64,000 bases of DNA from Chloroflexota bacterium. GTDB taxonomy: Bacteria; Chloroflexota; Dehalococcoidia; Dehalococcoidales; JBDRCY01. The notes beneath the pieces were generated by a model. It had not been told where the DNA came from, searched no databases, and saw only the letters and a list, made by a program, of their open reading frames with translations. Shown piece after piece: positions 10,450 through 60,215 of this stretch. The first letter of the stretch is position 1. Every line of letters begins with the position of its first letter. The translations under genes were made by a program, and so were the position numbers. The stretch lies in the NCBI GenBank assembly GCA_043821265.1, contig JBDRCY010000026.1, forward strand, positions 2,813 to 66,812. Reading direction: 5' to 3'.

Positions 10450-11580
10450 ATGAGAGAGATTGACCGGGTAAATAACCCTCATCATGACGATAAGGTAATC
10501 GATGCCTGCTCTATATTCGGGGCTATGGATGTCTCGGGAAGGCGGTTCTCCGGAGAGGGTGTTATCCGGGCTATTGCCAATATGCATGACCGGGGCAACG
10601 GACTGGGTGGCGGCTTCGCCGTTTACGGTCTGTATCCCGAGTATGCCGACCTTTATGCTTTTCACATCATGTACTTGAGCCAGGCGGGGCAGAAGGCGAC
10701 CGAGGAGTTTATCGCGGGGAGGTTTGACCTTGCCTGTAGCGAGGATGTGCCGACACGGGAGGTGTCGGCCGTGGTGAACCCACCGCTGGTGCGGCGCTAC
10801 TTTCTGGACGTGGGTCACCATAAGCCTGAGGGACAGTCGGCGGATGACTATGTCGTAGAGCGGGTGATGGAGATAAATACCAAGATTAGGGACACCTTCG
10901 TCTTTTCCAGCGGTAAGGACATGGCTGTCTTTAAGGGGGTAGGTTACCCGGAGGAGATAGCCGGTTTTTTCTCTCTGGAGCAATATGAGGGTTATTTGTG
11001 GACAGCCCACGGGAGATTCCCCACCAATACGCCCGGCTGGTGGGGTGGTGCTCACCCGTTCAGCATTCTGGACTGGACGGTAGTGCACAATGGCGAGATT
11101 TCGTCCTATGGCATAAACCGGCGCTACCTGGAGCAGTTCGGTTATTGCTGCACCATGCAGACGGATACCGAGGTGGTGGCTTATGCCGTTGACCTGCTTA
11201 TGCGTCAGCACGGCTTACCCGTTGAGATTGTGGCCAAGGTGTTGGCTTCCCCGTTATGGAGCGATATTGAGCGACTTCCTCCCGTGGAGCAAAAGCTGCT
11301 GCGAACGCTGCGTCAGGTATATGGCAGCCTGTTACTGAACGGGCCGTTTACGGTAATTATAGCCCATAGTGGCGAGATGATTGGGCTTACCGACCGCGTC
11401 AGGTTACGCCCGCTTACTGTCGGGGTAAAGGGCGATGAGCTCTATCTTTCCTCTGAGGAGTCGGCGATACGGCTTATCTGTCCCGATTTGGACAGGGCCT
11501 GGATTCCCACCGGTGGTGAGCCGGTCGTGGGCCGACTGGGAGTAAAATTGCTCGAGCCGCAGGTATCGGCGGTGGCTTGA
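10450..11580 (+). CDS. Glutamate synthase domain 1 (class II / Ntn glutamine amidotransferase), stand-alone archaeal-type
   Basis: 376 aa. Nucleophile Cys in CSIFGAMD after a 19-residue leader. HGRFPTNTPG and VVHNGEISSYG are typical of GltB/PurF-type amidotransferases. Confidence 0.85.
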   Translation: MREIDRVNNPHHDDKVIDACSIFGAMDVSGRRFSGEGVIRAIANMHDRGNGLGGGFAVYGLYPEYADLYAFHIMYLSQAGQKATEEFIAGRFDLACSEDVPTREVSAVVNPPLVRRYFLDVGHHKPEGQSADDYVVERVMEINTKIRDTFVFSSGKDMAVFKGVGYPEEIAGFFSLEQYEGYLWTAHGRFPTNTPGWWGGAHPFSILDWTVVHNGEISSYGINRRYLEQFGYCCTMQTDTEVVAYAVDLLMRQHGLPVEIVAKVLASPLWSDIERLPPVEQKLLRTLRQVYGSLLLNGPFTVIIAHSGEMIGLTDRVRLRPLTVGVKGDELYLSSEESAIRLICPDLDRAWIPTGGEPVVGRLGVKLLEPQVSAVA

Positions 11581-12363: not shown

Positions 12364-12375
12364 GGGGAAGGGCCG

Positions 12376-17794: not shown

Positions 17795-19126
17795 GTGAGC
17801 ATCAGGTTGAGAGAGAAGGGCGCTTCCCGCGGAGTGAGGGTGCCCGAAAATAAGATTACTGCCGAGAGGCCCATCGAGGTTTTTCCGTTACCGGAGAAGG
17901 TAATTATTCCCCTGCACCAGAATATCGGGGCACCGTGTGATGCTATCGTGAAGCGGGGGGATAAGGTGCTGACCGGCCAGTCGATAGGTAGTTCCGAGAA
18001 GTTCGTTAATGCCCCGGTTCATGCTACGATATCCGGCGAAATAACGGCTACCACCATGGTAATAAATCCCCCGACGGGGCAATCGGTCACGGCGGTGGTT
18101 ATCACCTCTGACGGGGAAGATAGGTGGGTGGAGCTGGACGTCCCCAGCCTTCCGGATGCGCTCTCCGCGGAGGAGATTTTAGGGAGGATAAGGCGGGCTG
18201 GCCTGGTCGGTATGGGCGGGGCCACCTTCCCCACCCATGTTAAGCTGCAACCCCCTAAGGGAAAGGAAATCGATACCGTTATCCTAAACGGGTGCGAGTG
18301 TGAGCCCTATATCACCTCGGACTACCGGGTGATGTTGGAATACGGGGAGAAGGTGTTATCTGGCTTAAATATCATCAGGAAGGTGCTCTCTCCCGCCAAT
18401 GTCTATATTGCCATCGAGGACAACAAGGAAGATGCCATAGAGCATGTGGAGAAACTGGTGGCGTCAATGGGCTTCGGCGATGATTTCAAAATAGTCCCCT
18501 TAAGGTCGAAGTATCCCATGGGGGCGGAAAAGACCCTGATAGAAATCGTGCTGGGTCGGGAGGTCCCTATCGGTGGGCTTCCCCTGGATGTGGGCGTGGT
18601 GGTACACAACGTGAGTACCGCCAAGGCGATACACGAGGCGGTATTCGAGGGTAAGCCCTTTATCGAGCGGGTGGTAACGGTTACCGGTGCCGTTAGGCAG
18701 CCGAAGAACCTAATGGTGCGCTTGGGCACGCCACTGAGGAGCCTGATAGAGTACTGCGGTGGCATGGACGAAGCTGCGGGAGAGGTTATACTCGGCGGGC
18801 CGATGATGGGCATAGCCCAGCCCGACCTTGATTTTCCGGTGACCAAGGGGACCAGCTGTGTGCTGGTACGGGAGAGATTGCCCATAAGGGAGCAGGTCTG
18901 CATAAGCTGCGGACAGTGCGTGGAGGTCTGCCCCATGCGTCTGGTGCCTACCATGCTGGCTAAGTGCGCCAAGGCCGGCCGGTATAATATTTGTCGGGAG
19001 ACTTACTATATTGATGATTGCTTCGAGTGTGGAGCCTGTAGCTACACCTGCCCGGCCAATATACCGATAGTGCAGTATGTCAAGGTTGCTAAAAGCGAGC
19101 TGGCCAGGAGGAAGGCCAAGAAATGA
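17795..19126 (+). CDS. rnfC: Rnf complex subunit C
   Basis: 443 aa. GLVGMGGATFPTHVKL, CISCGQCVEVCP, CFECGACSYTCP. Confidence 0.93.
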   Translation: MSIRLREKGASRGVRVPENKITAERPIEVFPLPEKVIIPLHQNIGAPCDAIVKRGDKVLTGQSIGSSEKFVNAPVHATISGEITATTMVINPPTGQSVTAVVITSDGEDRWVELDVPSLPDALSAEEILGRIRRAGLVGMGGATFPTHVKLQPPKGKEIDTVILNGCECEPYITSDYRVMLEYGEKVLSGLNIIRKVLSPANVYIAIEDNKEDAIEHVEKLVASMGFGDDFKIVPLRSKYPMGAEKTLIEIVLGREVPIGGLPLDVGVVVHNVSTAKAIHEAVFEGKPFIERVVTVTGAVRQPKNLMVRLGTPLRSLIEYCGGMDEAAGEVILGGPMMGIAQPDLDFPVTKGTSCVLVRERLPIREQVCISCGQCVEVCPMRLVPTMLAKCAKAGRYNICRETYYIDDCFECGACSYTCPANIPIVQYVKVAKSELARRKAKK

Positions 19127-20076
19127 TGCCGGACAAGAGGTTGGCCCTGGCACCGGCCCCGCATCTCTGGCGGGGGCTATCGGTAAGCAAGATAATGTAT
19201 ATCGTGACGATTGCCCTCCTGTTGCCCACGGGGGCCGGGATTTACTTCTTCGGTTATCGAGCTTTGCTGGTGGTAGTGGTAAGCGTGGCGGTGTCGCTGC
19301 TGACCGAATATCTGGTTAAGAAACTAAGGGGTAAGGCCTTTGTGATGGACGGGAGCGCCGTGCTCACCGGTCTCCTTCTGGCCTTGACCCTACCGCCGAC
19401 GATACCGCTATGGATGGTGGCGGTGGGGGCTATCTTTTCCATCGCTATTGTCAAAGAGGCCTTTGGTGGACTGGGGCACAATATATTCAACCCGGCACTG
19501 GGGGGGCGGGCCTTTCTGGCCGCCTCTTTCTCGGTGAGAATGACGACATGGGTAGCACCGTCGGGCTTTGCTGCCGATGCGGTAACCACAGCTACCCCCT
19601 TAAACAGTAATTTTGTCTGGGCTGCGGATAAACTATCCCTGTATAAAGAATTATTACTGGGGAATGTTGGCGGGTCGATAGGCGAAACATCGGCCCTGCT
19701 TATACTTTTGGGTGGAATTGCGCTATTGGTTCTCGGCATAATAAGGTGGCATATTCCAGTGGCCTATATCGGCACGGTGGCAGTGCTTACCCTGGCCCTG
19801 GGGCAGGACGCTGTAATTCATGTTCTCGCCGGTGGCCTTATGCTGGGGGCCTTCTTTATGGCGACGGACTATGTCACCTCGCCCATCACGGGAAAGGGGC
19901 GGATAATATTCGGTGTTGGGGCCGGCCTATTAACAGTGGCCATAAGGCGCTTTGGTGGTCTGCCGGAGGGCGTTTGCTACTCCATCCTCTTCATGAATGC
20001 CATCACCCCGCTTATTGACCGCTATATCAAGGTAAAGCCTTATGGTCTGGTAAAGAAGGAGAAAGGTGAAGGTTAG
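19123..20076 (+). CDS. rnfD: Rnf complex subunit D
   Basis: 317-aa polytopic membrane protein. FMN-attachment-type ADAVTTATPL. ATGA overlap with the rnfC stop. Confidence 0.92.
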   Translation: MMPDKRLALAPAPHLWRGLSVSKIMYIVTIALLLPTGAGIYFFGYRALLVVVVSVAVSLLTEYLVKKLRGKAFVMDGSAVLTGLLLALTLPPTIPLWMVAVGAIFSIAIVKEAFGGLGHNIFNPALGGRAFLAASFSVRMTTWVAPSGFAADAVTTATPLNSNFVWAADKLSLYKELLLGNVGGSIGETSALLILLGGIALLVLGIIRWHIPVAYIGTVAVLTLALGQDAVIHVLAGGLMLGAFFMATDYVTSPITGKGRIIFGVGAGLLTVAIRRFGGLPEGVCYSILFMNAITPLIDRYIKVKPYGLVKKEKGEG

Positions 20077-20602
20077 CACGAACAGGGGGATTTTCCCCAT
20101 AATCTTCATTACCGTAGTTGTCCTCATCGCGGTAGTTCTGCTTGCCTGGACGGATGGTTGCACCCGGGATAGAATTGCGGCCCAGGAGGAGGCGAAGTTA
20201 AACAGGATGCTCACGGAAATGTTCCCCGACATGAGTGAGTACACCATTGAGGGTGATATATATACCATATACTCCGATGGGGCCGGTATCGGCTACGCCT
20301 TTCTGGCGGTGGGTAAGGGATATGGTGGGGATATCGATATCCTGGTCGGGCTGGAGGATGAAACGACCATCAAAGGGGTAACTATAGTTACCCAGACCGA
20401 GACACCCGGTCTGGGTGATAGGGTGGCCGGTAGCTCTTTTACCGACCAGTTCTCCGGATTAAACTTTGGTGATGTGGCGCTCAGGCGGGACGGTGGGCAG
20501 ATAGATGCTATAACCGGGTCGACCATAAGCTCTAGCGCGGTGGTTGAGGCGGTCAAGATGGCAGGGCTAGAGAAGGTTAAATCTCTGAAGGGTAGTAATT
20601 AG
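20066..20602 (+). CDS. rnfG: Rnf complex subunit G
   Basis: 178 aa. Single N-terminal TM helix, FMN-binding motif AITGSTISS. Confidence 0.9.
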   Translation: MKVSTNRGIFPIIFITVVVLIAVVLLAWTDGCTRDRIAAQEEAKLNRMLTEMFPDMSEYTIEGDIYTIYSDGAGIGYAFLAVGKGYGGDIDILVGLEDETTIKGVTIVTQTETPGLGDRVAGSSFTDQFSGLNFGDVALRRDGGQIDAITGSTISSSAVVEAVKMAGLEKVKSLKGSN

Positions 20603-20604
20603 CT

Positions 20605-21219
20605 ATGGCTAGATTCGTAAAGGAGTTGGTCAAGGGGATAATCATCAGCAACCCCCTCTTTGTCCTGGCCCTGGGTTTCTGCCCGGCGCTGGCGGTCAGC
20701 ACCTCGATTGACAACGCCATAGGTATGAGCGTGGGCGTGCTCTTCGTGCTGCTCGGCTCGAACCTGATAATATCCCTCATCAGGAAGGGCGTACCCAATA
20801 TTGTGCGCATACCGGTATTTATCGTGGTAATTGCCACCTTCGTTACCCTGGTCAACCTGATATTCCACGCCTATGTTCCTGCTCTATATGAGTCGCTGGG
20901 TATATATCTGCCGTTGATTGTGGTCAACTGCATCATACTGGGTCGGGCGGAGGCCTTTGCCTCCAAGAACCCGGTGTTCGCCTCTATCGCCGATGCCATA
21001 GGTGCCAGCATTGGTTTCTTCCTGGCCCTGCTTATTATTTCCTTCCTCAGGGAGGTCCTGGGCACCGGTAGCCTGTCGCTATTCGGTACCCATCTTTTTA
21101 CACTACCCGTACTGGGAGAGGACCCCATGATTATGTTCATACTTCCCCCGGGAGCCTTCCTGGTCATGGCGCTGCTCCTGGCCCTGTTTAGGAGAACGGG
21201 GGTGATGAAGGGTGAGTAA
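20605..21219 (+). CDS. rnfE: Rnf complex subunit E
   Basis: 204 aa, six-helix RnfE/NqrD-like membrane protein. LGFCPALAV, VVNCIILGRAEAFA. Confidence 0.9.
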   Translation: MARFVKELVKGIIISNPLFVLALGFCPALAVSTSIDNAIGMSVGVLFVLLGSNLIISLIRKGVPNIVRIPVFIVVIATFVTLVNLIFHAYVPALYESLGIYLPLIVVNCIILGRAEAFASKNPVFASIADAIGASIGFFLALLIISFLREVLGTGSLSLFGTHLFTLPVLGEDPMIMFILPPGAFLVMALLLALFRRTGVMKGE

Positions 21220-21787
21220 TCTTATCGCCATATTCATCAGCATGGCTATCATCAATAACTTCATCGTGGCCCGGTTCCTGGGTCTGTGCCCCTTCTTCGG
21301 CGTCTCCAAGAAGCTTCAAGAGGCCATGAGCATGGGGTTTGCCGTTATACTGGTAATGCTTATTGCCTCGGTGGTTACCTGGATTATCACCAACTATGTC
21401 CTTATCCCCTTCGACGCTCAGTATATGGATATCATCATGTATATACTGGTAATAGCCTCGCTGGTGCAGATGATAGAGCTGTTCATCAAGCGGACTAATC
21501 TCACCCTCTATAACGCGCTGGGAATCTATCTACCGCTCATCACCACCAACTGTGCGGTGCTGGGAATTACCCTGATAAATGCCAAGGAAAGCTATACTCT
21601 CTTGGAGAGCACGGTTGCGGCCCTGGGCGGCGGTATGGGTTTTCTCCTGATTTTAATTATTATGTCCGGCATACGGGAGAAGCTGGAGATTGCCGACCTG
21701 CCCCGTTCGATGAAGGGGTTGCCCATAGCCATGCTGGTAGGCATGATGCTGGGCCTGACATTCTTTGGATTTGGGGGGATGGTATAG
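21212..21787 (+). CDS. rnfA: Rnf complex subunit A
   Basis: 191 aa, RnfA/NqrE-like. LGLCPFFGVS, ITTNCAVLG. Confidence 0.9.
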   Translation: MSNLIAIFISMAIINNFIVARFLGLCPFFGVSKKLQEAMSMGFAVILVMLIASVVTWIITNYVLIPFDAQYMDIIMYILVIASLVQMIELFIKRTNLTLYNALGIYLPLITTNCAVLGITLINAKESYTLLESTVAALGGGMGFLLILIIMSGIREKLEIADLPRSMKGLPIAMLVGMMLGLTFFGFGGMV

Positions 21788-22655
21788 GGTGTCGCTAGTT
21801 ATTATACTCATACTGACGGCTATAGCCCTTGTCTTCGGGCTGGCAATCTATTTCGTAAATCGCTATGTGCCCCATAAGGTGAAGGGTATTGAGAAGACGG
21901 AGGAGATTGCTGCTATACTGCCGGGGATGAACTGTGGTGCCTGTGGCCGTCCCGGCTGTTTTGCCTATGCCCAGGCGCTGACGGCGGAGCCGGAATTACT
22001 GGCTGAGGGTGACTGCGCTGTTGCCCTCCAGGCGACTGAGACGGTAGAGAAGCTGCAGGCGGCGCTGGGGGTGACCCTGGATGCCGCCGCCATGAGAAAG
22101 AGGGCCCTTGTCCATTGTAATGGTAACTCGGAGGCCATCCGCGATTACTCCGGGGTCGAGACATGTAAGGGGGCAACCCAGCTTTCCCGGGGCTATAAAA
22201 AGTGTCCCTTTGCCTGCCTGGGCTTGAGGGACTGTCTGGTGGTATGCCCTGAGGATGCCATATCGCTACGGCCTGAGAGTGGGGTGGCGGTGGTGGACCC
22301 ACAGAAATGCACCGGGTGTGGCCTCTGTATCGCCGAGTGTCCGATGAACCTCATCGAGCTGGTGCCGGAGGGGACCAAGGTAGCTTTCCTCTGTAATTAT
22401 GGGCCCTTAAGGGATATCCCGGGGCGGGAGAAGTGCGACTTTGGTTGTACTCATTGCCGCAAGTGCTTTAAGGCCTGTGAGGTTGAGGCCATCGAATGGA
22501 ATAAGGAAAGGGGTATCCCCGAGTTCGATATTGAGAAATGCACCCTCTGTCTTAGTTGTATCGAAGCGTGTCCCAATAGCACACTGGCGGAGTTTACCGG
22601 TATTAAAACCTTTAAGCAAAAGGAGCCGGCCCCGGCCGGGGCGGCCGAAGAATAG
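21765..22655 (+). CDS. rnfB: Rnf complex subunit B, long poly-ferredoxin form
   Basis: N-terminal TM helix, MNCGACGRPGCFAYAQAL, then several CxxCxxCxxxCP motifs. The true start may be the in-frame GTG at 21789, just after the rnfA stop. Confidence 0.88.
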   Translation: MDLGGWYRVSLVIILILTAIALVFGLAIYFVNRYVPHKVKGIEKTEEIAAILPGMNCGACGRPGCFAYAQALTAEPELLAEGDCAVALQATETVEKLQAALGVTLDAAAMRKRALVHCNGNSEAIRDYSGVETCKGATQLSRGYKKCPFACLGLRDCLVVCPEDAISLRPESGVAVVDPQKCTGCGLCIAECPMNLIELVPEGTKVAFLCNYGPLRDIPGREKCDFGCTHCRKCFKACEVEAIEWNKERGIPEFDIEKCTLCLSCIEACPNSTLAEFTGIKTFKQKEPAPAGAAEE

Positions 22656-36107: not shown

Positions 36108-36350
36108 CTATTTCCTTTCCGCTGCCTTGCGCTCGATGTAAGCGATAAAGTCGCCCATATTTTGGGCGTCCTTGAGCTCCTCGTCCACTATCTCGATGTC
36201 GTAGGTATCTTCCAGGGCGACCAGTATTTGCACGATATCGAGTGAGTCAGCCTGTAAATCCTTGAAGGTGGTGGTGGGGGTGAAATCCACATCCGGCTTG
36301 CGTACGATCTTGGTCACAATCTTCTTTACCGTTTCTTCAACTGTTGGCAT
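36108..36350 (-). CDS. acpP: Acyl carrier protein
   Basis: 80 aa. Phosphopantetheine site LQADSLDIVQ. Confidence 0.92.
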   Translation of the reverse strand: MPTVEETVKKIVTKIVRKPDVDFTPTTTFKDLQADSLDIVQILVALEDTYDIEIVDEELKDAQNMGDFIAYIERKAAERK

Positions 36351-36388
36351 GTAGCACTCCTTTGCTTATTTGGTCTCAACATCTTTGG

Positions 36389-37826: not shown

Positions 37827-37831
37827 TTTAG

Positions 37832-42888: not shown

Positions 42889-43851
42889 ATGAAACTACTG
42901 GCGCCGGTGGATAGGGTCGAGGAGGTGGCGGCGGTTATCCGTGCCGGGGCCGACGAGTTGTACTGCGGGCTGCTTACCGCCGACTGGCATGAGCGGTATA
43001 TTGCCGGCTCTATCAACCGGAGACCGGGCGGCGGTGCCAGTTTTACCACCCTCGCTGATCTGGCGGCCTGTGTCGACATTGCTCACTCTTCGAACGTCCC
43101 CGTTTTCTTAGCCGTGAACGAGCACTACTATACCCGGGAGCAGTACCCTTTTATCCGGGACTATGTGGAGAAGGTAGCGGCCGTCGGTATTGATGCCCTG
43201 ATGGTGGCCGATTTGGCCCTGCTACTGACCCTGCGGCAGATGGAGACCGGGATAAAGGTGATTATCAGCACCGGGGGGACCGCCTTCAATTCAGAGACAG
43301 TAAGGTTCTATCAGGACCTGGGGGCATCACGGGTAACGCTGCCCAGGCATCTGACACTGGACGAAATAGGGGATATCAGGGCCGGTGCCCCCGATGTTGA
43401 GCTGGGGGTCTTTATTTTGAACTCTCGCTGTCCCAACGTGGATGGCTTCTGCACCTTTCAGCACGGCCTGGCAAATAAATCCCTGAAACCACTGTTTCAG
43501 AATGCCTGTATGTTGCCCTATGAGGTATCTCTGGGGGCCGGTGGTGAACAGTCGCGGGTGTCATGGGAGCGGCAGCATATCTGGCAGCTAGTGCACATCG
43601 ATGACCACCCCTGTGGCGCCTGTGCCATCTATGACCTTGCCGGGACGGGTGTCAGCAGCCTAAAGATTGTCGGCCGGGGAAATCCGACGGCCCGGAAGCT
43701 AACCGACATCGGCTTTATCCGCTCGTTACTCGAGTTTCGGGAAAATGAGCGGCCCACAAGGGATGAATTCAGGGAGGTGGCACAGCAGCGGTATCGGGAC
43801 ACCTACCAGCGCCCCTGCCGGGGCTATATGTGCTACTATCCTGTCTGGTAG
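42889..43851 (+). CDS. Peptidase-U32-family protein, UbiU-like (divergent Cys pattern)
   Basis: 320 aa. MKLLAPVDRVEEVAAVIRAGADELYCG, DALMVADL, RVTLPRHLTLDEI. Cys residues at NSRCPNVDGFC, HPCGAC, RPCRGYMC. Confidence 0.7.
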   Translation: MKLLAPVDRVEEVAAVIRAGADELYCGLLTADWHERYIAGSINRRPGGGASFTTLADLAACVDIAHSSNVPVFLAVNEHYYTREQYPFIRDYVEKVAAVGIDALMVADLALLLTLRQMETGIKVIISTGGTAFNSETVRFYQDLGASRVTLPRHLTLDEIGDIRAGAPDVELGVFILNSRCPNVDGFCTFQHGLANKSLKPLFQNACMLPYEVSLGAGGEQSRVSWERQHIWQLVHIDDHPCGACAIYDLAGTGVSSLKIVGRGNPTARKLTDIGFIRSLLEFRENERPTRDEFREVAQQRYRDTYQRPCRGYMCYYPVW

Positions 43852-43858
43852 TTTGGTT

Positions 43859-44650
43859 ATGGAACAGGCATTATTTATCGCAAAGGTTGAGCATCTGAAG
43901 TATTATGAGCCTCGTTTCTCCCGGATATACTTCGGTAATGAGTTCTGCCAGCAGCTTATTCCCTCCGTCGGTGATTTGGAGCGGGTACTGGATTTTGTGG
44001 GGCAGAATAATCTCGATTTCACCCTGGTCAGTCCGTATGTTACCGACCGGGGGTTGGAGGGATTGGAGCCCCTGCTGGCGGCGACTGCGGAGGGCAAGCC
44101 GGGTAGCGAGGTGGTCTTTAACGATTACGGGGTGTGGCGTGTCCTTAAGGGCCGCTATCGGGGGCTTAGTCCGGTGATGGGGCGCCTGCTGAATAGAATG
44201 AAGCGTGGGCCCAGGTTGATGACGGTCATTGATAAACTGCCGTCGAGCACGGTGGACTACTTCAGGAGTTCGAACCTTGCCGTGCCCGTCCTGCGCTGGT
44301 TTCTGGCCGAAAGCGGGGTCAGCCGGGTGGAACTGGACAATGTACTTCAGGGTATGGACTTTAACCTCGATGGCCTGAAGGCGTCGCTGTACTGGCCCTA
44401 CGCTTACGTTACTACGACGCGGCTGTGTCTGGCGAATTGCGGCGAAGAACCGGAGAGCCGAGAGAAGATTGGCATTTTCCCCTGCGAGCGGGAGTGCCGG
44501 AAATACACCTTTTACCTGGAGAATGAGGCAATGCCGGTCCCCCTGATAAGGAAGGGTAACACTATCTTCTTTGAAAACGAGGCGTTGCCCGATGATATGT
44601 CCGGGTTGGGGATAGACCGTATCGTTGTTGAGCCTGAGTTGCCCATTTAG
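43859..44650 (+). CDS. Peptidase-U32-family protein, UbiV-like
   Basis: 263 aa from the ATG at 43859. RIYFGNEFCQQL resembles UbiV VIYLGEAVCSKR, YWPYAYVTTTRLCLANC resembles YGHLPLAYSARCF, and PCERECRKY resembles ECETCCIKY (E. coli sequence from memory). Confidence 0.6.
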   Translation: MEQALFIAKVEHLKYYEPRFSRIYFGNEFCQQLIPSVGDLERVLDFVGQNNLDFTLVSPYVTDRGLEGLEPLLAATAEGKPGSEVVFNDYGVWRVLKGRYRGLSPVMGRLLNRMKRGPRLMTVIDKLPSSTVDYFRSSNLAVPVLRWFLAESGVSRVELDNVLQGMDFNLDGLKASLYWPYAYVTTTRLCLANCGEEPESREKIGIFPCERECRKYTFYLENEAMPVPLIRKGNTIFFENEALPDDMSGLGIDRIVVEPELPI

Positions 44651-46941: not shown

Positions 46942-47183
46942 TATTTTACTCCACGGTGATAAGGGCCCTTCGGGTATATTATACTTGTCTTCGGAGCTAG
47001 ACTCCAGCCGTAGCAGTGCACTTTACATAATATATGGGCTGGAATTCAGCTTAGAGGGTTGGATTTCTATGTGACGGACGTAGTGGTTCTGAACCGACCG
47101 GTTGGCGTGAGGTGCAAATACTGGTAAGTAAAGCAGAGGGCTGGTTTGGTATGTTTAAGCGAACCGGGCCAGGGAAGGTGGGT

Positions 47184-47441
47184 TCAGCCCTCGGCGGTGG
47201 TCTCCCCCTTCTTTTCCGTAGCCGGCGCTGCCGGCTTATCTCCGTTTCGCTTGTGGCCCGGGTTATTTCGGCTGTCGGTTACGTAAAAGCCTGACCCCTT
47301 GAAGATTATGGGCACCGGCGAGAAGATGCGCCTGGCGCTACCCTGGCACTGGGGACAGGTAGCATCTGAATTGTCATTAAAGCCCCGCCTGAGGTCAAAG
47401 GTGTAGGAGCAATTTTCACACTGGTATTCGTAGATCGGCAT
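47184..47441 (-). CDS. FmdB-family zinc-ribbon protein
   Basis: MPIYEYQCENC...CPQC, followed by a basic/Gly-rich tail. Confidence 0.8.
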   Translation of the reverse strand: MPIYEYQCENCSYTFDLRRGFNDNSDATCPQCQGSARRIFSPVPIIFKGSGFYVTDSRNNPGHKRNGDKPAAPATEKKGETTAEG

Positions 47442-47628
47442 ATAACGAAAAAACCTCCTGGTTACGCTTGCTCGGACTCAAAATTAGCAGTCCTCTAACA
47501 GGACTGCTAATTAATCTTACTACAGTATGGAACCGAAGTCAAGCCCTTTTCCCGGTAGTATCGAGCTTGATATCAGCAGGTCAGTGGCTAGACTGAGAGG
47601 GACTGAGGGTTATTTCATCCCGGGGGAA

Positions 47629-47850
47629 ATGGTGGTACGGCTGACATTCTACGGCGGCGTCGAGGAGATTGGCGGTAATAGGCTCCTCCTGGAAGGCACC
47701 AATGTGGGGTGAGATGAGAATGTCAGCGAGCGGGAGGTGTATGAGAGCGGGCTAAAGGCCATTGACGGCGCCCGTGGCCTGGTTATCGCTGATTTTTCAC
47801 CCCGGGACGTGGACCGACTGCCCATCAGGTATGGTACACTTGAGATATAG
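47629..47850 (+). pseudogene. Remnant of an MBL-fold (RNase J / beta-CASP-like) hydrolase gene
   Basis: MVVRLTFYGGVEEIGGNRLLLEG, then a stop. A second frame gives GLVIADFSPRDVDRL. No HxHxDH motif is left. Confidence 0.35.
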
Positions 47851-47886
47851 GTCGTATAGCCCTCTCCAGCGGAAGGAGATTTCGGC

Positions 47887-48879
47887 ATGGACCCGGAAAG
47901 GGAGAAACCAGTCCAGCTGAATGATTTCAAACCGGGGCAGGAGCGCTTCCTCGCCGAGGTCTTAAGCGGCCTGCGTAAACCGCAAAAAGAATTGCCCTCC
48001 AAGTATTTCTACGATGAGCGTGGTTCTCTTTTGTTCGATCGTATCTGCACCCTGGATGAATACTATATCCCGCGCACGGAAGGGGCCATCATGGAGACCT
48101 ATATCGAAGAGATGGTGGAACTAATCGGCCCCGGTATTCTCCTGATTGAATATGGCAGCGGGAGTAGCGATAAGACGCGTATCCTCTTGGAGCACCTTAA
48201 GGGCCTGGCGGCCTACGTGCCGATTGATATCTGCCGGGAGCAGTTACTGCGGGTGAGTCGTGAGCTTACCTCGGCCTATGCTGGGCTTCAGGTGTTGCCG
48301 GTCTGCGCCGACTATACGAGTAGCTTTGAGTTGCCCTCCCCGGAGCGGCCCGGCGAGCGCCAGGTGGTCTATTTCCCCGGCTCTACGATTGGTAACTTTG
48401 ACCCTATCCCCGCCAAGCTTTTCTTGGAGCATGTTGCCGGGGTATGTGGCCCGGGCGGCGGGCTACTTATTGGTGTGGACCTTAAAAAAGACCCCGAGGT
48501 GCTCCACCGTGCTTATAATGATAGCCAGGGCGTCACCGCAGCCTTTAACCTCAATCTACTTGAGCGAATAAACGGTGAACTGGGCTGCGACTTTCAACCC
48601 GAGGGCTTCGAGCATTATGCTTTCTATAATCCGGGCCAGGGTCGGGTTGAGATGCACCTGGTGAGCCGGAGAGACCAGATGGTCCATCTGGATAACGTGA
48701 CCATCCCTTTCGCTAAGGGGGAAAGTATCTGGACGGAGAGTTCATATAAGTATAACATTGACGAATTTGAACAGATGGCTGCGGCGGCAGGATTTAGGGT
48801 GGAGCAGGTCTGGACGGACGCCAAGCAGTGGTTCAGCGTGCAGTACCTGTCGAGCACCGGGGGGCAATTTTATAGTTAG
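47887..48879 (+). CDS. egtD: L-histidine N-alpha-methyltransferase (EgtD/EanA type, makes hercynine)
   Basis: 330 aa. PQKELPSKYFYDERGSLLFDRICTLDEYYIPRTE, YGSGSSDKTR, FPGSTIGNF, RAYNDSQGVTAAFNLN, TESSYKY. Co-linear with M. smegmatis EgtD as remembered. Confidence 0.85.
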   Translation: MDPEREKPVQLNDFKPGQERFLAEVLSGLRKPQKELPSKYFYDERGSLLFDRICTLDEYYIPRTEGAIMETYIEEMVELIGPGILLIEYGSGSSDKTRILLEHLKGLAAYVPIDICREQLLRVSRELTSAYAGLQVLPVCADYTSSFELPSPERPGERQVVYFPGSTIGNFDPIPAKLFLEHVAGVCGPGGGLLIGVDLKKDPEVLHRAYNDSQGVTAAFNLNLLERINGELGCDFQPEGFEHYAFYNPGQGRVEMHLVSRRDQMVHLDNVTIPFAKGESIWTESSYKYNIDEFEQMAAAAGFRVEQVWTDAKQWFSVQYLSSTGGQFYS

Positions 48880-48895
48880 AAAGGATGTGGTTGGC

Positions 48896-49204
48896 TCACC
48901 GGCAGGGAATTAAGCGTACTATGTTCTTCTCTTGAAGCACCTGTGCCAGTGCCGATACCGTTTCGTCGATATCTTTTTCCGTAGTGTAGCGGGACAGCGA
49001 AAAGCGCACTGCGCAGTGGGCCTCCTCCTCGGTCCGCCCCATGGCCATGAGCACATGCGTGGGCTCCGGAGAGCCTGATTTGCAGGCCGACCCCGAAGAG
49101 AGGGAGATGTCGTGCTGGTCCAGCGCTAGCACCAGCGATTCCCCTCGCAGTCCCGGCAGGGTCAAGTTAAGGGTGTTGGGCAGCCGCTTTTGCGGGGTGA
49201 CCAT
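48896..49204 (-). CDS. C-terminal piece of the cysteine desulfurase module (contains the catalytic Cys loop), split from the upstream ORF by a 1-nt frameshift
   Basis: KRLPNTLNLTLPGLRGESLVLALDQHDISLSSGSACKSGSPEPTHVLMAMG is the canonical NifS/IscS C-terminus. Confidence 0.8.
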   Translation of the reverse strand: MVTPQKRLPNTLNLTLPGLRGESLVLALDQHDISLSSGSACKSGSPEPTHVLMAMGRTEEEAHCAVRFSLSRYTTEKDIDETVSALAQVLQEKNIVRLIPCR

Positions 49205-52200
49205 TTAGCCTGGCGTCGGGCACCAGATTCCTGATGCCCGCTTCCAGTTTATCCCGTAGTACTCTTATCTTTTCGGCATCCCGCAGGGTATGTCGGGCCA
49301 GCTCCGCTGCCTTGCCCAGGCCGGCAATGGCGGGGACATTCTCTGTCCCGGCTCGCCGCCCGCCCTCCTGCTGGCCGCCATGGATGAGCGGTTCCAGTTC
49401 TATATCTCTCTTTAGGTAAAGGGCGCCGATACCCTTCGGACTGTGGAATTTGTGGCCGGAAAGACTGAGCATGTCTAGACCTAGCTCCTCCACGTCCACT
49501 CTTATCTTGCCCACGGCCTGAACGGCATCACTGTGGAACAGGACACCTCTTTCGTGGGCTATAGCGGCTAGCTCCTTGACAGGCAGGATAGTGCCCACCT
49601 CGTTATTGGCCATCATAATGGAGACGAGGATGGTATCGGCGGTGATGGTCTGTCTTAGTTTATCGGGCTCAAGCCAGCCGTTATTGTCCACCTCTAGGTA
49701 AGTGATGCGGTAGCCAAGCTTCTCCAGGAAGTGGCCGGTGCTCAGGGTGGCCGGGTGCTCGATGGTGGTGGTAATAATATGCTTGCCCTTTTTCTGCCGG
49801 GTGAAGGCTATACCCTTGAGAGCCAGGTTGCTGGCTTCGGAGCCCCCGCTGGTGAAGATGATTCTCCGGGGCTGGGCGTTAATCAGTTTGGCTACCTGGC
49901 GGCGAGCCGTCTCTATGGCTTCTCTGGCATCTCTGCCCACATCATGGATGCTGGAGGGGTTGCCGCAGGCTGCCTCCAGATGGGGTATCATGACCTCTCG
50001 TACCTTGTCGGCCACCGGGGTGGTGGCGTTGTTATCGAGATAGATTCGTCTCTCGGGCTTCCCGATTGGGGTGGTATGGACAGATGGACTGGCACAGGCC
50101 ATCTGTCGGTTAACGGCAAGGCGGGTCTTGGCGGTGCCCGGCTCGACCTTTGCCACCTCACAGAGCAGGGCTTTATAAACGGGAAAGCCGGAGATAATGT
50201 CGTAGTTATTGATGTCGGTGAGGTCATTGACGTTCCACTCTTGCCACGCCTTGGGGCCCACCGGTGTGCCGCCGCCCATGGTGCATTCGACGGCCCCGTT
50301 TACAATATCGGCGCTAACCCGGGCCCTGAAGGGCACGGCACCACGCGGAGTCCTGACCTCCACCAAATCGCCACTCTTGATTTCCCGTTTCTCGGCATCC
50401 GTAGTGTTTAAGTCAACGGTAGGCTCGGGATAGTCCTTCACCAGCCCTTCGATGCTGTGGTGCTGGGAGCGGAAATCGGTCTGGGGGCGGGCGCCGGAGT
50501 TGAATACCAGCGGGAACTTCTCCGCTACCCTGGGGCTGCCCTGGGGGCTTTCCGATGGTTCGGTGTATTTGGGCAGTGGTTCATAGCCGTATTCTTCCAA
50601 GATGGTGGAATATATCTCAAACTTGCCGGTGGGGGTATCGAAGCCGGGTTGGCCATCACGGCGTAAGCCACCTTTTTGCCATTTCTTGTACTCCAGCATG
50701 GGCGTGGCTATCCTTACCCAGCCGCCCGCTGCTTTCACTTCCTCCAGGGTGTAGCTGGAGCCGTCCAGGGCGAAGCGAATCATCTCCTCTTCGCTAAGTG
50801 GATATAGGTGCCCGTAGCCCAGACGCCGGGCTAGCTCCGTCATGATGAGGTGGTCGTTGCGGGCCTCCCACAGGGGCTCGATGACCTTTTCCCGCAGGCG
50901 GAATATTGGCCCGTAGGTCATATAGGAGTCGTTCTCAAACATGGTGGTGGCCGGCAGTACAATGTCGGCATAGGCGGCGTCGGCGGTGAGTTGTCGGTCG
51001 ATACAGGCTATAAATTCCAGCCCGGCCAGTGTCTGGCGCCAGACTGGTGTCTGCGGCCAGGAGGTAAGCAGTGAGGCGCCGTGTATCAGTAGCGCCCGGA
51101 TGCGATACGGTTCGCCTTTGAGCACTGAGTCCACCAGCCCGCTGGCATGGGACTCGCCGCGATAGTGGCTGTAAAGGGGGAATTTATTGCGGGCTACCGC
51201 CCGGTCTATATCTGGGTTTTCCTGGTTGCCGGAGCGGTTGATGGGGAAATCGCTGCCTAGCATAGACAGGCCGATGCCGCCGGGAACATCGAGCTGGTCG
51301 GCCAGAGCGAACAGGGTAAGCACCGCTCGGATAGCCTGAATGCCGCTGTTGGAATACTCCAGGCCGGTGTACATCAGCAGCGAGGTGCCGGTGGCGTTAG
51401 CGATGCGGTGGGTCAGGTCGCGGATGGTGTCCGCCGGTATCCCGGTGATGGTCTCCGCCACTTCGGGAAGGAAGTGCTGGACATAGGTGGCCAGCTCGCT
51501 AAAACCGTGGCACCAGTTCTCGGCGAAGTCCTCGTCGTAGAGTTCTTCGCTGGCCATTACCCAAATCATGCTCAGGGCGAGGGCGCCGTCGGTGCCGGGC
51601 CGGATGGGGACCCACTGGGCGTTGGTGCGTATGGCCGTTTCGGTGCGGCGGGGGTCGATGACGACAATATCAGCCCCCCTGGCGGCGGCAGCTTCCAGCC
51701 GCTGCATATCCACCGGGGGTGAGTCGGTGGCGGGGTTGGTGCCCCATACCACGACCATCTCGGCGTTCTCTATGTCGGTGAACATGTTAACCTGCATCCG
51801 GCCCATGGTTATGTGTGGGGCAATCATGGCCAGAGATACGTAGCACAGCGCTCCCACTCCCATGGTGTTCGGCGAGCCGAAGGGGAACAGGATATTGGAT
51901 GCCGAGGATACGGTCACCCCTCTGGGCTGGAACATATCGCACAGGGCCAGCTCATTGGCCCCGCGCCCGGTATAGATAGCCACCGCCTCCGGCCCCGGTT
52001 CCTGTTTGATTCTGTTCAGCGCTTCCACAATGGTGTCGTAGGCCGCATCCCAGGTGATGCGTTCAAACTCATAGGAGCCTTTGGGCCCCACTCGCTTCAT
52101 GGGGTATTTGAGCCGGTGCTCGGAGTAGACGATTTCCGCGGCGTGCTGGCCACGCCGGCAGATCTGCCCTATGGGGTGGCTGCTGTCTTGCCTGATGTCC

Positions 52201-52307
52201 ACCAGCCGGCCATTTTCAAGCCCTACCTCCACCCAGCAGCCGGCCGGGCAAATGCCGCAGAGACCCTTCCGCCACGCAAGTTGGCTCTTGGATTTTGACG
52301 TTGCCAT
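49167..52307 (-). CDS. Molybdopterin (bis-MGD) oxidoreductase-family domain fused to a class-V aminotransferase / cysteine desulfurase domain (candidate metallopterin-dependent ergothioneine synthase)
   Basis: 1046 codons. N-terminal Fe-S motif CGICPAGCWVEV...C, then a ~700-aa MopB-like body, then IYLDNNATTP...SGGSEASN...SLSGHKFHSPKG (PLP lysine). The ORF ends prematurely at ...LNGHP. Confidence 0.75.
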   Translation of the reverse strand: MATSKSKSQLAWRKGLCGICPAGCWVEVGLENGRLVDIRQDSSHPIGQICRRGQHAAEIVYSEHRLKYPMKRVGPKGSYEFERITWDAAYDTIVEALNRIKQEPGPEAVAIYTGRGANELALCDMFQPRGVTVSSASNILFPFGSPNTMGVGALCYVSLAMIAPHITMGRMQVNMFTDIENAEMVVVWGTNPATDSPPVDMQRLEAAAARGADIVVIDPRRTETAIRTNAQWVPIRPGTDGALALSMIWVMASEELYDEDFAENWCHGFSELATYVQHFLPEVAETITGIPADTIRDLTHRIANATGTSLLMYTGLEYSNSGIQAIRAVLTLFALADQLDVPGGIGLSMLGSDFPINRSGNQENPDIDRAVARNKFPLYSHYRGESHASGLVDSVLKGEPYRIRALLIHGASLLTSWPQTPVWRQTLAGLEFIACIDRQLTADAAYADIVLPATTMFENDSYMTYGPIFRLREKVIEPLWEARNDHLIMTELARRLGYGHLYPLSEEEMIRFALDGSSYTLEEVKAAGGWVRIATPMLEYKKWQKGGLRRDGQPGFDTPTGKFEIYSTILEEYGYEPLPKYTEPSESPQGSPRVAEKFPLVFNSGARPQTDFRSQHHSIEGLVKDYPEPTVDLNTTDAEKREIKSGDLVEVRTPRGAVPFRARVSADIVNGAVECTMGGGTPVGPKAWQEWNVNDLTDINNYDIISGFPVYKALLCEVAKVEPGTAKTRLAVNRQMACASPSVHTTPIGKPERRIYLDNNATTPVADKVREVMIPHLEAACGNPSSIHDVGRDAREAIETARRQVAKLINAQPRRIIFTSGGSEASNLALKGIAFTRQKKGKHIITTTIEHPATLSTGHFLEKLGYRITYLEVDNNGWLEPDKLRQTITADTILVSIMMANNEVGTILPVKELAAIAHERGVLFHSDAVQAVGKIRVDVEELGLDMLSLSGHKFHSPKGIGALYLKRDIELEPLIHGGQQEGGRRAGTENVPAIAGLGKAAELARHTLRDAEKIRVLRDKLEAGIRNLVPDARLNGHPAKAAAQHP

Positions 52308-52472
52308 TCTTACCTATCCTTTGGCTCTATCATCCATTATCGGGTGGTATTACCGGCCGGTGGCTATGGAATATAGTATTACATAGTAACCGTCAGGCTA
52401 GCAATGTCTCTGTCGGGACGGCTCTTAACCCTCGGTAGTGCTTAGCCGAAACCACAGTCAAGATAAACCCTC

Positions 52473-52502
52473 TTGACAAAGCCGGTTTCAACGTGGTAAA
52501 TA
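52473..52502 (+). promoter_or_regulatory. Sigma-70-like promoter of the third degV gene
   Basis: TTGACA (52473-52478), 18-nt spacer, TAAATA (52497-52502). Confidence 0.45.
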
Positions 52503-52526
52503 TACCTAGACGAACTAGGTATATTT
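52498..52526. promoter_or_regulatory. Perfect 12-5-12 palindrome (candidate repressor operator) overlapping the -10 region and start site of degV
   Basis: AAATATACCTAG-ACGAA-CTAGGTATATTT. The arms are exact reverse complements. Confidence 0.6.
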
Positions 52527-52548
52527 TTATAAGGTAGTAGCTATTGTG

Positions 52549-53403
52549 ATGTCTAAGGTTTGCATTGTAACCGATAGTACCAGTTGCCTGCCGGCGGAGC
52601 TGATCGAGGAATACGGCATACGAGTGGCGCCGGTGGGTTTCGTTATTGATGGCAAGCACTACCGCGACCAGGTAGACATTACCACGGCTGAATTCTGGGA
52701 ATTATTTCCCAATCTGGAGGAACAGCCCAGCACAACTGCCGCCAGTCCCGGTGACTTTGTTAATATCTTCACCGAAATGAGTGAGTCCACCGATAGTATC
52801 GTCTGTATCCTGGTCTCCAAGGTGCTGTCGGCCACCCAGGAATCGGCCTATTTGGCCCGGAGGCTGGTAAAACAGGACCACCCCAACCTCAGAATAGAGA
52901 TTATTGATAGCAAGACAGCGGCCGGGGCGATGGGATTCGTTGTTCTGGAGGCGGCTCGTGCTGCCCATCAGGGTAAGAGCCTGGAAGAGGTTCTTGAAGT
53001 TACTGAGGATATGATTCCCCGGGTAGTCTATTTTGCCGCCCTGGAGACACTGAAGTATCTGGCAAAGATAGGGCGGGCACCCCGGGGTGCCTCCGTCGGC
53101 GAGATGCTCAAGGTAAAGCCTATAATCGGCTTCGTCGATGATACCGGTCTGCTGGATCTGGTCGCCAGGGTGAGAGGGCGGGATAAGGCCCTGGCCAAGC
53201 TGGTCGACCTGATGGAAGACTACATCGAGGATGGCAATCCGGTGCATGTCATGGTGCATTACTCCGAGGATAATAAGGATGTAGAGATGCTAAGGGAGAT
53301 GGTTTCTTCACGTTATAATTGTGTGGAAATGTATGACGGAGAGTTCTCGCCGGTAATGGTCGGTGCTGTCGGTCCCATAGTGGGGCTGTCCTTCTATACA
53401 TAA
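52549..53403 (+). CDS. DegV-family fatty-acid-binding protein (third copy)
   Basis: MSKVCIVTDSTSCLP, IIDSKTAAGAMGFVVLEAA. The ORF track start at 52546 is a GTG one codon upstream. Confidence 0.88.
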   Translation: MSKVCIVTDSTSCLPAELIEEYGIRVAPVGFVIDGKHYRDQVDITTAEFWELFPNLEEQPSTTAASPGDFVNIFTEMSESTDSIVCILVSKVLSATQESAYLARRLVKQDHPNLRIEIIDSKTAAGAMGFVVLEAARAAHQGKSLEEVLEVTEDMIPRVVYFAALETLKYLAKIGRAPRGASVGEMLKVKPIIGFVDDTGLLDLVARVRGRDKALAKLVDLMEDYIEDGNPVHVMVHYSEDNKDVEMLREMVSSRYNCVEMYDGEFSPVMVGAVGPIVGLSFYT

Positions 53404-58492: not shown

Positions 58493-59674
58493 ATGAAACT
58501 GATAGTTATTGGCTGTGGACAATGCGGTGGCAGGATTGCCGATGAGTTTGCTCGGTTAAATATACGGGCGCGTGCTGAGCGTGGCATAGAGATTATTACC
58601 GGCGCATACGCCGTAAACACCGACGTAGCTGATTTAAGCGGTCTATCCAATATTAGGCGCGATTATCAACACCGGATCTTAATCGGCAATCAGAAGACCG
58701 GCGGGCATGGCGTCGGTAAGATAAACGAACTTGGCGCCGAGATAGCTATGGATGATGGCGACAAGGTTATTGACGCCATCAGGACCACACCACACTTCAA
58801 TGAGACGGATGCCTTCCTGATTGTCTCCAGTGCGGCGGGCGGTACCGGTTCCGGGGCGATACCGACACTGACCAAGAAAATAAAGGAGCGTTACGTCTTA
58901 AAACCGGTCTATAATCTTATCGTGTTGCCCTTCCTGCATGAGGAGGCGACGGAGGAGAGGACGACCTATAATACGGCCACCTGTATTAAGTCGGCTTACT
59001 TGGCGGCTGATGCCATATTCCTGGTGGATAATCAACGGTTTGTTAAAAAGGACTTTCCCATTAAGGACAACCTGGCTAAAATCAATAATGCCGTGGTGAG
59101 TCCTTTTTACAACCTGCTCTGTGCCGGAGAAGAGAAGAAGGCGCAATATATCGGGGCTAAGATGATCGATGCTGGCGATATAATACAGACCCTGGTCGGC
59201 TGGACGGTAATCGGTTATGGCCGGACGACAACGCCGGGGTTCAAGTTCTCCTTCGGCAAGAAGGGTGATGATTTCAGGGATAAGAGCAGCGAGTCACATC
59301 GGGGAACTAATGCCTTACAGGGAGCGATAAATGACTTATCGCTTAAGTGTGACCCGACTGATGCCAGGAGATGCCTGTATCTCGTCTCCGGGCCACCCAA
59401 GCAAATGAGTATGGACATGCTAAGTAATCTGGCCTCGTTTACCAAAGGCATAGCCCCGGAGTCTATCATAAGGAGCGGTGATTATCCCAGGGGTAAAAAC
59501 GCGATGGGCGTTACCGTAATCCTATCCGAGCTCATCAATGTGAGCAAAGTCATGGACTACTTCGCTAAAACGATTGAATATATCCATGCTGCTAAGCGGA
59601 GATGGGGAACGGTTGACCGCCGGCAAGAGAGTATCCAGGATATCTTCAAGGATATTCCCTCGCTGCTGGGCTAG
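58493..59674 (+). CDS. Tubulin/FtsZ-superfamily GTPase, tubulin/CetZ-like rather than canonical FtsZ
   Basis: 393 aa. T1 loop GCGQCGGRIADEF (compare beta-tubulin GQCGNQIGAKF), T4 signature AAGGTGSG, FLVDNQRF (tubulin-type DN), T7-like KMIDAGDIIQTL. Confidence 0.75.
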   Translation: MKLIVIGCGQCGGRIADEFARLNIRARAERGIEIITGAYAVNTDVADLSGLSNIRRDYQHRILIGNQKTGGHGVGKINELGAEIAMDDGDKVIDAIRTTPHFNETDAFLIVSSAAGGTGSGAIPTLTKKIKERYVLKPVYNLIVLPFLHEEATEERTTYNTATCIKSAYLAADAIFLVDNQRFVKKDFPIKDNLAKINNAVVSPFYNLLCAGEEKKAQYIGAKMIDAGDIIQTLVGWTVIGYGRTTTPGFKFSFGKKGDDFRDKSSESHRGTNALQGAINDLSLKCDPTDARRCLYLVSGPPKQMSMDMLSNLASFTKGIAPESIIRSGDYPRGKNAMGVTVILSELINVSKVMDYFAKTIEYIHAAKRRWGTVDRRQESIQDIFKDIPSLLG

Positions 59675-59723: not shown

Positions 59724-60215
59724 TTAGCTGGTAACCTTGGTAAAGGTGTTCCAGGCCTGGTCCAGGATTCTAGTACGCTCTTGCCAGGCTTCTTCAAGAG
59801 TTTCGTTACGGGTCTTTAGGGCCTGTGCCACCTTCTCTTCGTAAGTCGTCTTGGTTTGTTCTCTGGCCTTATTGAAATCCATCTCGGCCTGTCGTTCAGC
59901 CTCAGCGTGGGTACTCCGGGCTTCCGCTATGGCCTTTTCGCAGCCTTCATTGATTTTCCTTTCCGCTTCCTTGTAGGTGGCCTCGACCTCCTGCTCATTT
60001 TCCCGGTATGCCCGTGCCACGTCTTTTTGGGCATTCATGTAAGCCGTATAGGCTCTCTCAGCCTGGGCTAGAACATTATCTAGCGAACCCTTGGCCTTAG
60101 CCAGTTCGGCAGCCACCGGTTCTTCTGCCGGCTCTTCAGTTGGTGCGGCGGGACTCTGGATTTCCTCTACTGGCTCCGCAGTTTCCTTTTTCCCCTGTAT
60201 CCTAGGCTCCGTCAT
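59724..60215 (-). CDS. Acidic coiled-coil protein, function unknown
   Basis: 163 aa. Pro/Glu-rich N-terminus, then uninterrupted heptad-like Ala/Glu/Lys/Arg helix. No TM helix or signal peptide. Confidence 0.55.
   Translation of the reverse strand: MTEPRIQGKKETAEPVEEIQSPAAPTEEPAEEPVAAELAKAKGSLDNVLAQAERAYTAYMNAQKDVARAYRENEQEVEATYKEAERKINEGCEKAIAEARSTHAEAERQAEMDFNKAREQTKTTYEEKVAQALKTRNETLEEAWQERTRILDQAWNTFTKVTS

Follow-up and report, generated by a model that had tools for sequence, protein, structure and literature searches.

Ergothioneine is made without O2 by metallopterin-dependent ergothioneine synthases (MES), in which an acetylene-hydratase-like metallopterin module is fused to a cysteine desulfurase and whose hosts are anaerobes that also encode the histidine methyltransferase EgtD but have neither EgtB nor EanB (Beliaeva & Seebeck, JACS Au 2022, PMC9516567). 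As described there, four homologs (CaMES, hvMES, EaMES and AbMES) yield ergothioneine in E. coli. In CaMES, the enzyme of Caldithrix abyssi (UniProt A0A7V4WV16), the metallopterin module comprises residues 1-718, with Fe4S4 ligands C14, C17, C21 and C48 and metal ligand C153, and the desulfurase comprises residues 747-1136, with K952, C1074, C1097 and C1135 (PMC9516567). The pyridoxal phosphate (PLP) lysine and the last three cysteines were the criteria for Table S1 of that paper. The substitution C153S abolished CaMES activity, K952A, C1074S and C1135S each gave a 2000-fold lower ergothioneine output, and sulfur transfer was reported to be obligatorily intramolecular, with the desulfurase and molybdopterin (MPT) modules on one polypeptide (PMC9516567). 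EanB, a rhodanese-type enzyme of Chlorobium, and EgtB, an O2-dependent sulfoxide synthase, have the same net role as MES, the sulfurization of imidazole C2 of trimethylhistidine, but their folds and cofactors are unrelated to it. Here we describe an egtD/MES gene pair at positions 47887..52307 of a 64-kb stretch of DNA (the window) from a contig of a Chloroflexota metagenome-assembled genome (MAG), and a single-base frameshift that divides the MES gene.

The MES gene and its partner egtD

The pair is convergent and fills the interval 47887..52307. The egtD gene lies on the forward strand (47887..48879) and the MES gene on the reverse strand (48896..52307), with a spacer of 16 nt (48880..48895) between their stop codons. 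A preliminary description of the region had called the first open reading frame (ORF) an EgtD and had placed 16 nt beyond it, on the other strand, a gene that starts with a MopB-type cysteine cluster, CGICPAGCW...C, and has a body of about 700 amino acids. This layout stands, with the stop of the second gene at 48896 and its ATG at 52307. The ATG is preceded by AAAGGATAGGTAAGA, a plausible ribosome-binding site, and the N-terminus is identical to that of an intact protein, P0121, from a related genome (the sibling, below). No significant hairpin was found by folding at the convergent junction (z = 0.93), and promoters and terminators were predicted within 47100-52700 no more often than in shuffled sequence, so that no transcription signal can be claimed. 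With one C removed at the frameshift, the gene encodes 1136 amino acids, exactly the length of CaMES. Judged by sequence comparison, the fusion at 48896..52307 is a previously undescribed Chloroflexota member of the known MES family. The two genes of the locus very probably make up an O2-independent route to ergothioneine in an anaerobic Chloroflexota bacterium, with an MES that was functional until essentially the present.

The domain order is that of CaMES, Fe4S4 and bis-molybdopterin guanine dinucleotide (bis-MGD) MopB followed by NifS. The Pfam matches run from Molybdop_Fe4S4 (aa 12-62) through Molybdopterin (aa 65-494) and Molydop_binding (aa 607-713) to Aminotran_5 (from aa 755). The MopB module, with a Pfam span of aa 12-713 (50169..52274, reverse strand; PF00384, E 4.5e-42; PF01568, E 8e-16), is predicted to bind bis-MGD with Mo or W and to be the site of sulfur transfer. 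It continues in frame into a class-V aminotransferase/NifS domain that contains SGHKFHSPKG. The N-terminal three-quarters of the NifS module (49167..50045, reverse strand) is in frame with MopB and matches PF00266 over aa 755-1038 (profile positions 1-304 of 371) and TIGR03402 over positions 1-286 of 379; it ends with 8 aberrant codons and a TAA at 49167-49169. The C-terminal 98 NifS codons (aa 1039-1136 of the repaired protein; 48896..49192, reverse strand) are out of frame and match TIGR03402 positions 284-373 (E 2e-28).

The repaired window protein was aligned with the four validated MES enzymes and ten database homologs, and nine of nine MES-defining positions are conserved in this set. 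They comprise the Fe4S4 cysteines Cys17, Cys20, Cys24 and Cys50 (52158..52259, within the PF04879 match at aa 12-62; CaMES Cys14/17/21/48); the predicted Mo/W ligand Cys155, kept in all aligned MES (51843..51845; CaMES Cys153); the PLP-binding Lys953 in SGHKFH (49449..49451; CaMES Lys952); the predicted persulfide-forming Cys1075 in SSGSAC (49082..49084; CaMES Cys1074, which is essential); Cys1098 in EAHC (49013..49015; CaMES Cys1097, conserved but not essential); and the penultimate residue Cys1135 in ...IPCR (48902..48904; CaMES Cys1135, the essential relay cysteine), all encoded on the reverse strand. Cys155 also aligns with the cysteine in GSPN...C of acetylene hydratase (2E7Z), which we take to be its tungsten ligand Cys141. 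No twin-arginine (Tat) motif is present at the MES N-terminus, which fits a cytoplasmic enzyme; acetylene hydratase likewise has no Tat signal.

The validated MES sequences were machine-read from the supplement PDF, and the identities to them are therefore lower bounds. On this basis the MopB module is at least 55-66% identical to those of CaMES, hvMES, EaMES and AbMES, with scores of 714-924 bits, and over its full length the window protein is at least 58% identical to CaMES and at least 65% to hvMES. Among solved non-MES structures the best match is acetylene hydratase 2E7Z (217 bits), followed by PsrA/PhsA 2VPW (208) and dimethyl sulfoxide reductase (about 160). Acetylene hydratase and PsrA/PhsA share with the window module the N-terminal Fe4S4 cysteine motif and a cysteine metal ligand, but they are only about 27-30% identical to it, have no fused desulfurase or relay cysteines, and act on other substrates by other chemistry. 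When the library was clustered at 50% identity, the fused family collapsed to essentially one full-length representative (1410 bits); it was followed by stand-alone MES-like MopB proteins (45-53% identity), and generic MopB proteins were more distant (33-37%). By these bit scores and identities the module groups with the validated MES enzymes and not with another MopB family, such as the unrelated clade that the preliminary description had considered (at most 217 bits to any solved non-MES protein).

The egtD product, a predicted S-adenosylmethionine-dependent L-histidine N-alpha-methyltransferase of 330 amino acids, contains the motifs on which the earlier assignment was based. It scores 396.6 bits against the TIGR03438 egtD_ergothio equivalog model (cutoff 290.9), falls below the cutoff of the sister family EasF (170.6 vs 205.55), and matches PF10017 with E 9e-110. 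In the mycobacterial enzymes the histidine site is formed by Tyr39, Phe47, Tyr56, Asn166, Tyr206, Thr213, Glu282 and Ser284 (M. smegmatis / M. tuberculosis numbering; PMC8593015). All of these are kept in the window protein, at aa 42, 50, 59, 170, 210, 217, 284 and 286, in an alignment with M. smegmatis EgtD (4PIM) that is co-linear over aa 19-316 (E 2e-57). The equivalent of Met252, reportedly a further substrate-site residue (Vit et al. 2015), is aa 256 and is also conserved. By these comparisons ORF 47887..48879 is an EgtD, predicted to produce trimethylhistidine (hercynine). It resembles mycobacterial EgtD (PDB 4PIM, 7SCF) in all histidine- and carboxylate-binding residues, but the mycobacterial enzyme serves the O2-dependent EgtB/EgtC/EgtE route whereas the window EgtD is paired with an MES.

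In a Pfam scan of about 53 ORFs across the 64-kb window, no FGE-sulfatase/DinB_2 (EgtB), rhodanese (EanB), EgtE or second Aminotran_5 gene was found, nor were genes for molybdenum cofactor (Moco) biosynthesis or tungstate transport. A class-II glutamine amidotransferase at 10450..11580 was considered as a candidate EgtC and rejected, being part of a glutamate-synthase cluster with Glu_synthase and GXGXG genes. The earlier statement that the window has no EgtB, EgtC, EgtE or EanB-type gene agrees with these results.

The proposed pathway builds on the observed homology, architecture, catalytic-residue conservation and gene linkage. EgtD, by homology, would make trimethylhistidine. The C-terminal PLP-dependent NifS module would take sulfur from L-cysteine as a persulfide on Cys1075, from which it would be relayed intramolecularly via Cys1135 to the Mo/W center of the N-terminal module. 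This latter module would be acetylene-hydratase-like and bis-MGD-binding, with Cys155 as metal ligand and an Fe4S4 cluster. Attack by imidazole C2 of trimethylhistidine on the metal-sulfido group would then give ergothioneine. The preliminary description had read the fusion in this way, as a metallopterin-dependent ergothioneine synthase with the two-module architecture reported by the Seebeck laboratory. That attribution agrees with the account in PMC9516567, and the protein length, the nine residues, the identities of 55-66% and the adjacency of EgtD all point the same way. The profile searches that it proposed gave Fe4S4, Molybdopterin, Molydop_binding and Aminotran_5 matches in the MES and PF10017 in EgtD.

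Gene linkage and spread of the family

GTDB species representatives were scanned with the MopB module alone. A relative was found in at least 114 genomes, and 80 loci were fetched, with hosts in Dehalococcoidia, Calditrichia, KSB1, Gemmatimonadota, Krumholzibacteriia, Latescibacterota, Actinomycetota, Nitrospirota, Desulfobacterales and others. Each complete MES copy in the fetched loci is one continuous ORF, except in L073, a long-read MAG in which the gene has three frameshifts; truncations in two further loci (L008 and L070) are only apparent and reflect masked runs of N. EgtD was encoded within about 5 kb of the MES in 44 of 60 informative loci (73%), so the absence of such linkage in relatives, which would have spoken against the assignment, was not seen. 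In 29 of the 44 it was convergent and directly downstream, in 10 co-directional and downstream, in 4 upstream, and in 1 fused. The stop-to-stop gaps of the 29 convergent loci are mostly 16-117 nt, the outliers being an overlap of about 10 nt and a gap of about 1 kb. As these data show, a convergent egtD/MES pair is the rule in Dehalococcoidia.

More than 120 clusters of proteins at least 74% identical were found in the protein database, nearly all of 1103-1157 aa; the only short one, P0001, is the truncated product of the window itself. Together with the continuous ORFs of the relatives, these clusters rule out an assembly chimera as the source of the MopB::NifS fusion, a doubt raised in the preliminary description. 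The same description had implied that such enzymes are rare, and this was mistaken: four Dehalococcoidia/Chloroflexi entries already stand in Table S1 of PMC9516567, and close homologs now number in the hundreds. By this survey, the MES family now extends far beyond the roughly 55-80 genomes of the 2022 list (PMC9516567).

In public databases most of these clusters go without a name or under 'IscS subfamily cysteine desulfurase', and the label 'aminotransferase class V-fold PLP-dependent enzyme' is also in use. The main practical gain from the present analysis is correct naming, since the generic annotation hides probable O2-free ergothioneine synthesis in many uncultured anaerobes, among them members of Dehalococcoidia, Calditrichia, KSB1 and Gemmatimonadota.

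Several further features of the family were observed. MES proteins are 73-81% identical among MAGs of distant phyla (Dehalococcoidia, Calditrichia, KSB1, Gemmatimonadota, Actinomycetota and Krumholzibacteriia), which suggests frequent horizontal transfer or else binning or taxonomy noise. Loci without an adjacent EgtD are mostly non-Chloroflexota. In L052, a co-directional MES-EgtD pair is followed after about 2 kb by a second MopB paralog with only 28% identity (11288-13360). In a Bacteroidales MAG (L072:1-3249, JAIWDV010000251.1) and in proteins P0134 and P0148, an MES-type MopB is fused in frame to EgtD and has no NifS. Two independent proteins with no more than about 57% identity both show the combination PF10017+PF00384+PF01568, so that the MopB::EgtD fusion probably represents a true alternative architecture; the Results and Discussion of PMC9516567 do not mention it. 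There are also stand-alone MES-like MopB proteins of about 710-750 aa with no fused desulfurase (P0144, P0162, P0164-P0172, P0176 and P0177, with P0246, P0248, P0249 and P0253 in addition in the 50% library), examples of which are annotated 'Formate dehydrogenase subunit alpha [ANME-1 cluster archaeon]' or Halobacteriota; P0172 is from ANME-1. As sulfur transfer in CaMES must be intramolecular, the stand-alone proteins raise the question of what their sulfur donor might be. Since MES-type MopB occurs without fused NifS, a covalent relay may not be needed in every case.

A frameshift in the MES gene

The MES span of 48896..52307 measures 3412 nt, that is 3n+1, and is therefore not one intact ORF. 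The long ORF (49167..52307) encodes 1046 aa and stops 8 aberrant codons after ...ARLNGHP. The tail ORF (48896..49204, reverse strand) encodes 102 aa, has an ATG of its own at 49204, and holds the SSGSAC cysteine, EAHC and the C-terminal PCR. The preliminary description had the MopB gene running without a break into the desulfurase. This is right for the junction of MopB and NifS, which is in frame, and wrong for the last 98 codons. The fused, one-polypeptide architecture of MES (about 1130-1150 aa) that is intact in P0121 is thus split in the window into two products. EgtD, the 1046-aa product and the 102-aa fragment are MFH1775832.1, MFH1775834.1 and MFH1775833.1 at NCBI, all from one Chloroflexota MAG contig of 73.5 kb; since the truncated product is deposited as a separate coding sequence (CDS), the lesion is in the public assembly. 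The window MES differs from the validated enzymes in its Chloroflexota host and in a 1-nt insertion that detaches the last 98 residues, and resembles CaMES in being encoded beside EgtD in a probable anaerobe.

The site of the shift was located with the help of the sibling. P0121 (MFC2018806.1, genome GCA_042580345.1), an intact protein of 1136 aa, was found as the second member of the 90%-identity cluster of the truncated protein. The sibling EgtD has the adjacent accession, and gene order on the sibling contig, L081, matches that of the window over the interval bounded by the tubulin-like gene and the U32 peptidase gene, both included. In nucleotide sequence the MES genes of window and sibling share 94.6% identity, with exactly one indel between them. 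In the pairwise DNA alignment with L081 there is a single gap column, where the sibling has GGTCATCCGCAAAAG and the window GGTCACCCCGCAAAAG; it falls in a run of four C (GGGG on the forward strand) at 49194..49197 that contains one extra C. The codons at this point are GGT CAT CCG CAA AAG in the sibling and GGT CAC CCC G CAA AAG in the window. With one C removed, the protein reads ...NGHPQKRLPNTLN... and is co-linear with every relative; the relatives have NGH-x-x-x-RLPNT in one frame at this position. A placement of the extra base as the lone C in G-C-AAAA, which was derived from distant relatives and would restore HPEK, was discarded, as the sibling gives the repair in the C run and hence HPQK.

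The detached tail is 96% identical to the sibling protein. In the approximately 100 codons past the shift, the differences from the sibling are 13 synonymous and 4 non-synonymous, compared with 92 and 66 before it (Fisher p = 0.19); no second frameshift or stop is present, and all three conserved cysteines are retained. The tail sequence therefore gives no sign of relaxed constraint. From the undecayed tail and the intact, 94.6%-identical gene of the sibling it follows that the MES was functional until essentially the present. Two origins of the lesion would then be about equally likely in our view, an error of consensus or assembly and an inactivating mutation that is very recent and possibly not yet fixed. 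Over an alignment of about 21.6 kb between window and sibling, every other indel lies between genes, lies at a gene end or is compensated, and that in the MES gene is the sole disruptive intragenic one. Pfam scans of the window ORFs revealed no other split gene. Thus, the assembly is not generally error-prone. An exact DNA pattern search over the shift site (5-8 nt variable gap) across the metagenome found no second copy of the strain.

The comparison with the sibling also revealed differences at egtD. A 1-nt indel at its 3' end (window 48858) alters the last seven or so codons, outside the conserved domain, such that the window EgtD has 330 aa and ends in ...STGGQFYS and that of the sibling has 329 aa and ends in ...STWGTIL. 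Directly upstream of egtD, about 1.4 kb is present only in the sibling (L081 14457-16045 vs window 47442-47886). This stretch holds two overlapping metallo-beta-lactamase (MBL)-fold ORFs with Lactamase_B and RMMBL matches, co-directional with egtD, which are probably one frameshifted beta-CASP gene; the window keeps a remnant of 139 nt (47683-47821, 86.5% identity).

Several points weigh against the reading of the locus as a working pathway. The 1046-aa product of the deposited gene is without Cys1075 and Cys1135 and, by analogy with CaMES C1074S and C1135S, would be inactive for net synthesis, so that the pathway may be dead in the window organism. The low indel rate of the assembly weakens the explanation of the extra C as an assembly error. 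The loss of about 1.4 kb upstream of egtD relative to the sibling could affect egtD expression. In the account given in PMC9516567, the chemistry and the obligatory intramolecular relay were shown for CaMES only, and they are carried over by analogy to the window protein and to any other Chloroflexota MES. The negative results for EgtB, EanB and Moco genes hold for the 64-kb window.

If the extra C is genuine, the gene could be a recent pseudogene, in which case the MES would be inactive, the organism would make at most hercynine and the lineage would be losing the pathway. We consider this a distinct possibility. The deposited assembly contains the shift and annotates two CDS for the gene, the shift stands alone as a disruptive indel in an assembly with a low indel error rate, a run of 4 nt is short for a homopolymer miscall, and a deletion of about 1.4 kb lies nearby, upstream of egtD. 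Moreover, CaMES requires both of the cysteines that are detached here as well as the intramolecular relay (PMC9516567). However, the tail is undecayed and shows no excess of non-synonymous change, egtD is intact, and frameshifts in MAG consensus sequences are common artifacts, as the three in the MES gene of L073 illustrate. A genuine shift might instead be tolerated, either because the ribosome slips by +1 at CAC-CCC-G or because the 1046-aa and 102-aa products reassemble non-covalently into an active split enzyme. Slippage on CCC-G, with tRNA-Pro moving from CCC to CCG, would restore HPQKRLPNT..., exactly the sequence of the sibling. However, the site lacks conservation, as the gene is in one frame in the sibling and in every complete locus apart from the multiply frameshifted L073, and no stimulatory element is evident, whether a strong Shine-Dalgarno sequence upstream or a slow or stop codon in the ribosomal A site. 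Reassembly could draw on the tail's own ATG and on the precedent of MES-type MopB without fused NifS, stand-alone or fused to EgtD, by which the covalent architecture is not universal; yet the break falls inside the folded desulfurase domain, and CaMES needs its desulfurase and MPT modules on one polypeptide (PMC9516567). Tolerance by either route is very unlikely. If it were true, this would be a natural recoded or split MES, contradicting the requirement for desulfurase, relay cysteines and metallopterin module on one polypeptide.

The identity of the enzyme leaves less room for doubt. That the fusion is a different MopB enzyme equipped with a desulfurase of its own, for instance a polysulfide/thiosulfate-type reductase or a protein of Moco sulfuration, and that its adjacency to EgtD is coincidental, we consider extremely improbable. 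PhsA/PsrA-type reductases are among the best non-MES NCBIfam and PDB matches, at a distance similar to that of acetylene hydratase, and in 16 related loci EgtD is missing from the flanking 5 kb or so. Against this stand the 55-66% identity to four enzymes of demonstrated activity, the retention of all MES-specific cysteines, including the unusual penultimate one, and the linkage of EgtD in 73% of informative loci; furthermore, the protein has no Tat signal, and no genes for partner FeS or membrane subunits flank it. We therefore retain the reading as an MES that worked until essentially the present. The window locus is then a routine member of the family with a single-base lesion, and would represent new biology only if the frameshift were real and tolerated.

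Other genes of the window

The neighbors of the egtD/MES pair are unrelated to it and include GlcD/F-like FAD oxidases, a U32 peptidase, a radical SAM protein, an alpha/beta-hydrolase, a phosphoesterase, DegV and a branched-chain-type ABC transporter. The window also encodes an Rnf complex (17795..22655) and many Fe-S/flavin reductases, a content that fits an anaerobic lifestyle of the host. Three DegV-family paralogs are present (31530-32390, 32429-33412 and 52546-53403). One is divergent from the MES gene, and the other two lie near a fatty-acid synthesis cluster (34068-38251) consisting of PlsX, FabF and MaoC dehydratases.

CetZ proteins are regarded as archaeal. This Chloroflexota MAG encodes a tubulin-superfamily protein with Pfam Tubulin and CetZ_C matches (58493-59674, forward strand), and the gene is kept and syntenic in the sibling (L081 2649-3830). 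It is adjoined by two reverse-strand ORFs that belong to no Pfam family (59724-60215 and 60298-62121). The peptidase-U32 gene (42889-43851, forward strand) is followed by an overlapping ORF of 301 aa on the same strand (43745-44650), which has no Pfam match. Both are kept in the sibling (L081 19832-20794 and 19033-19824), and they may constitute a UbiU/UbiV-like pair.

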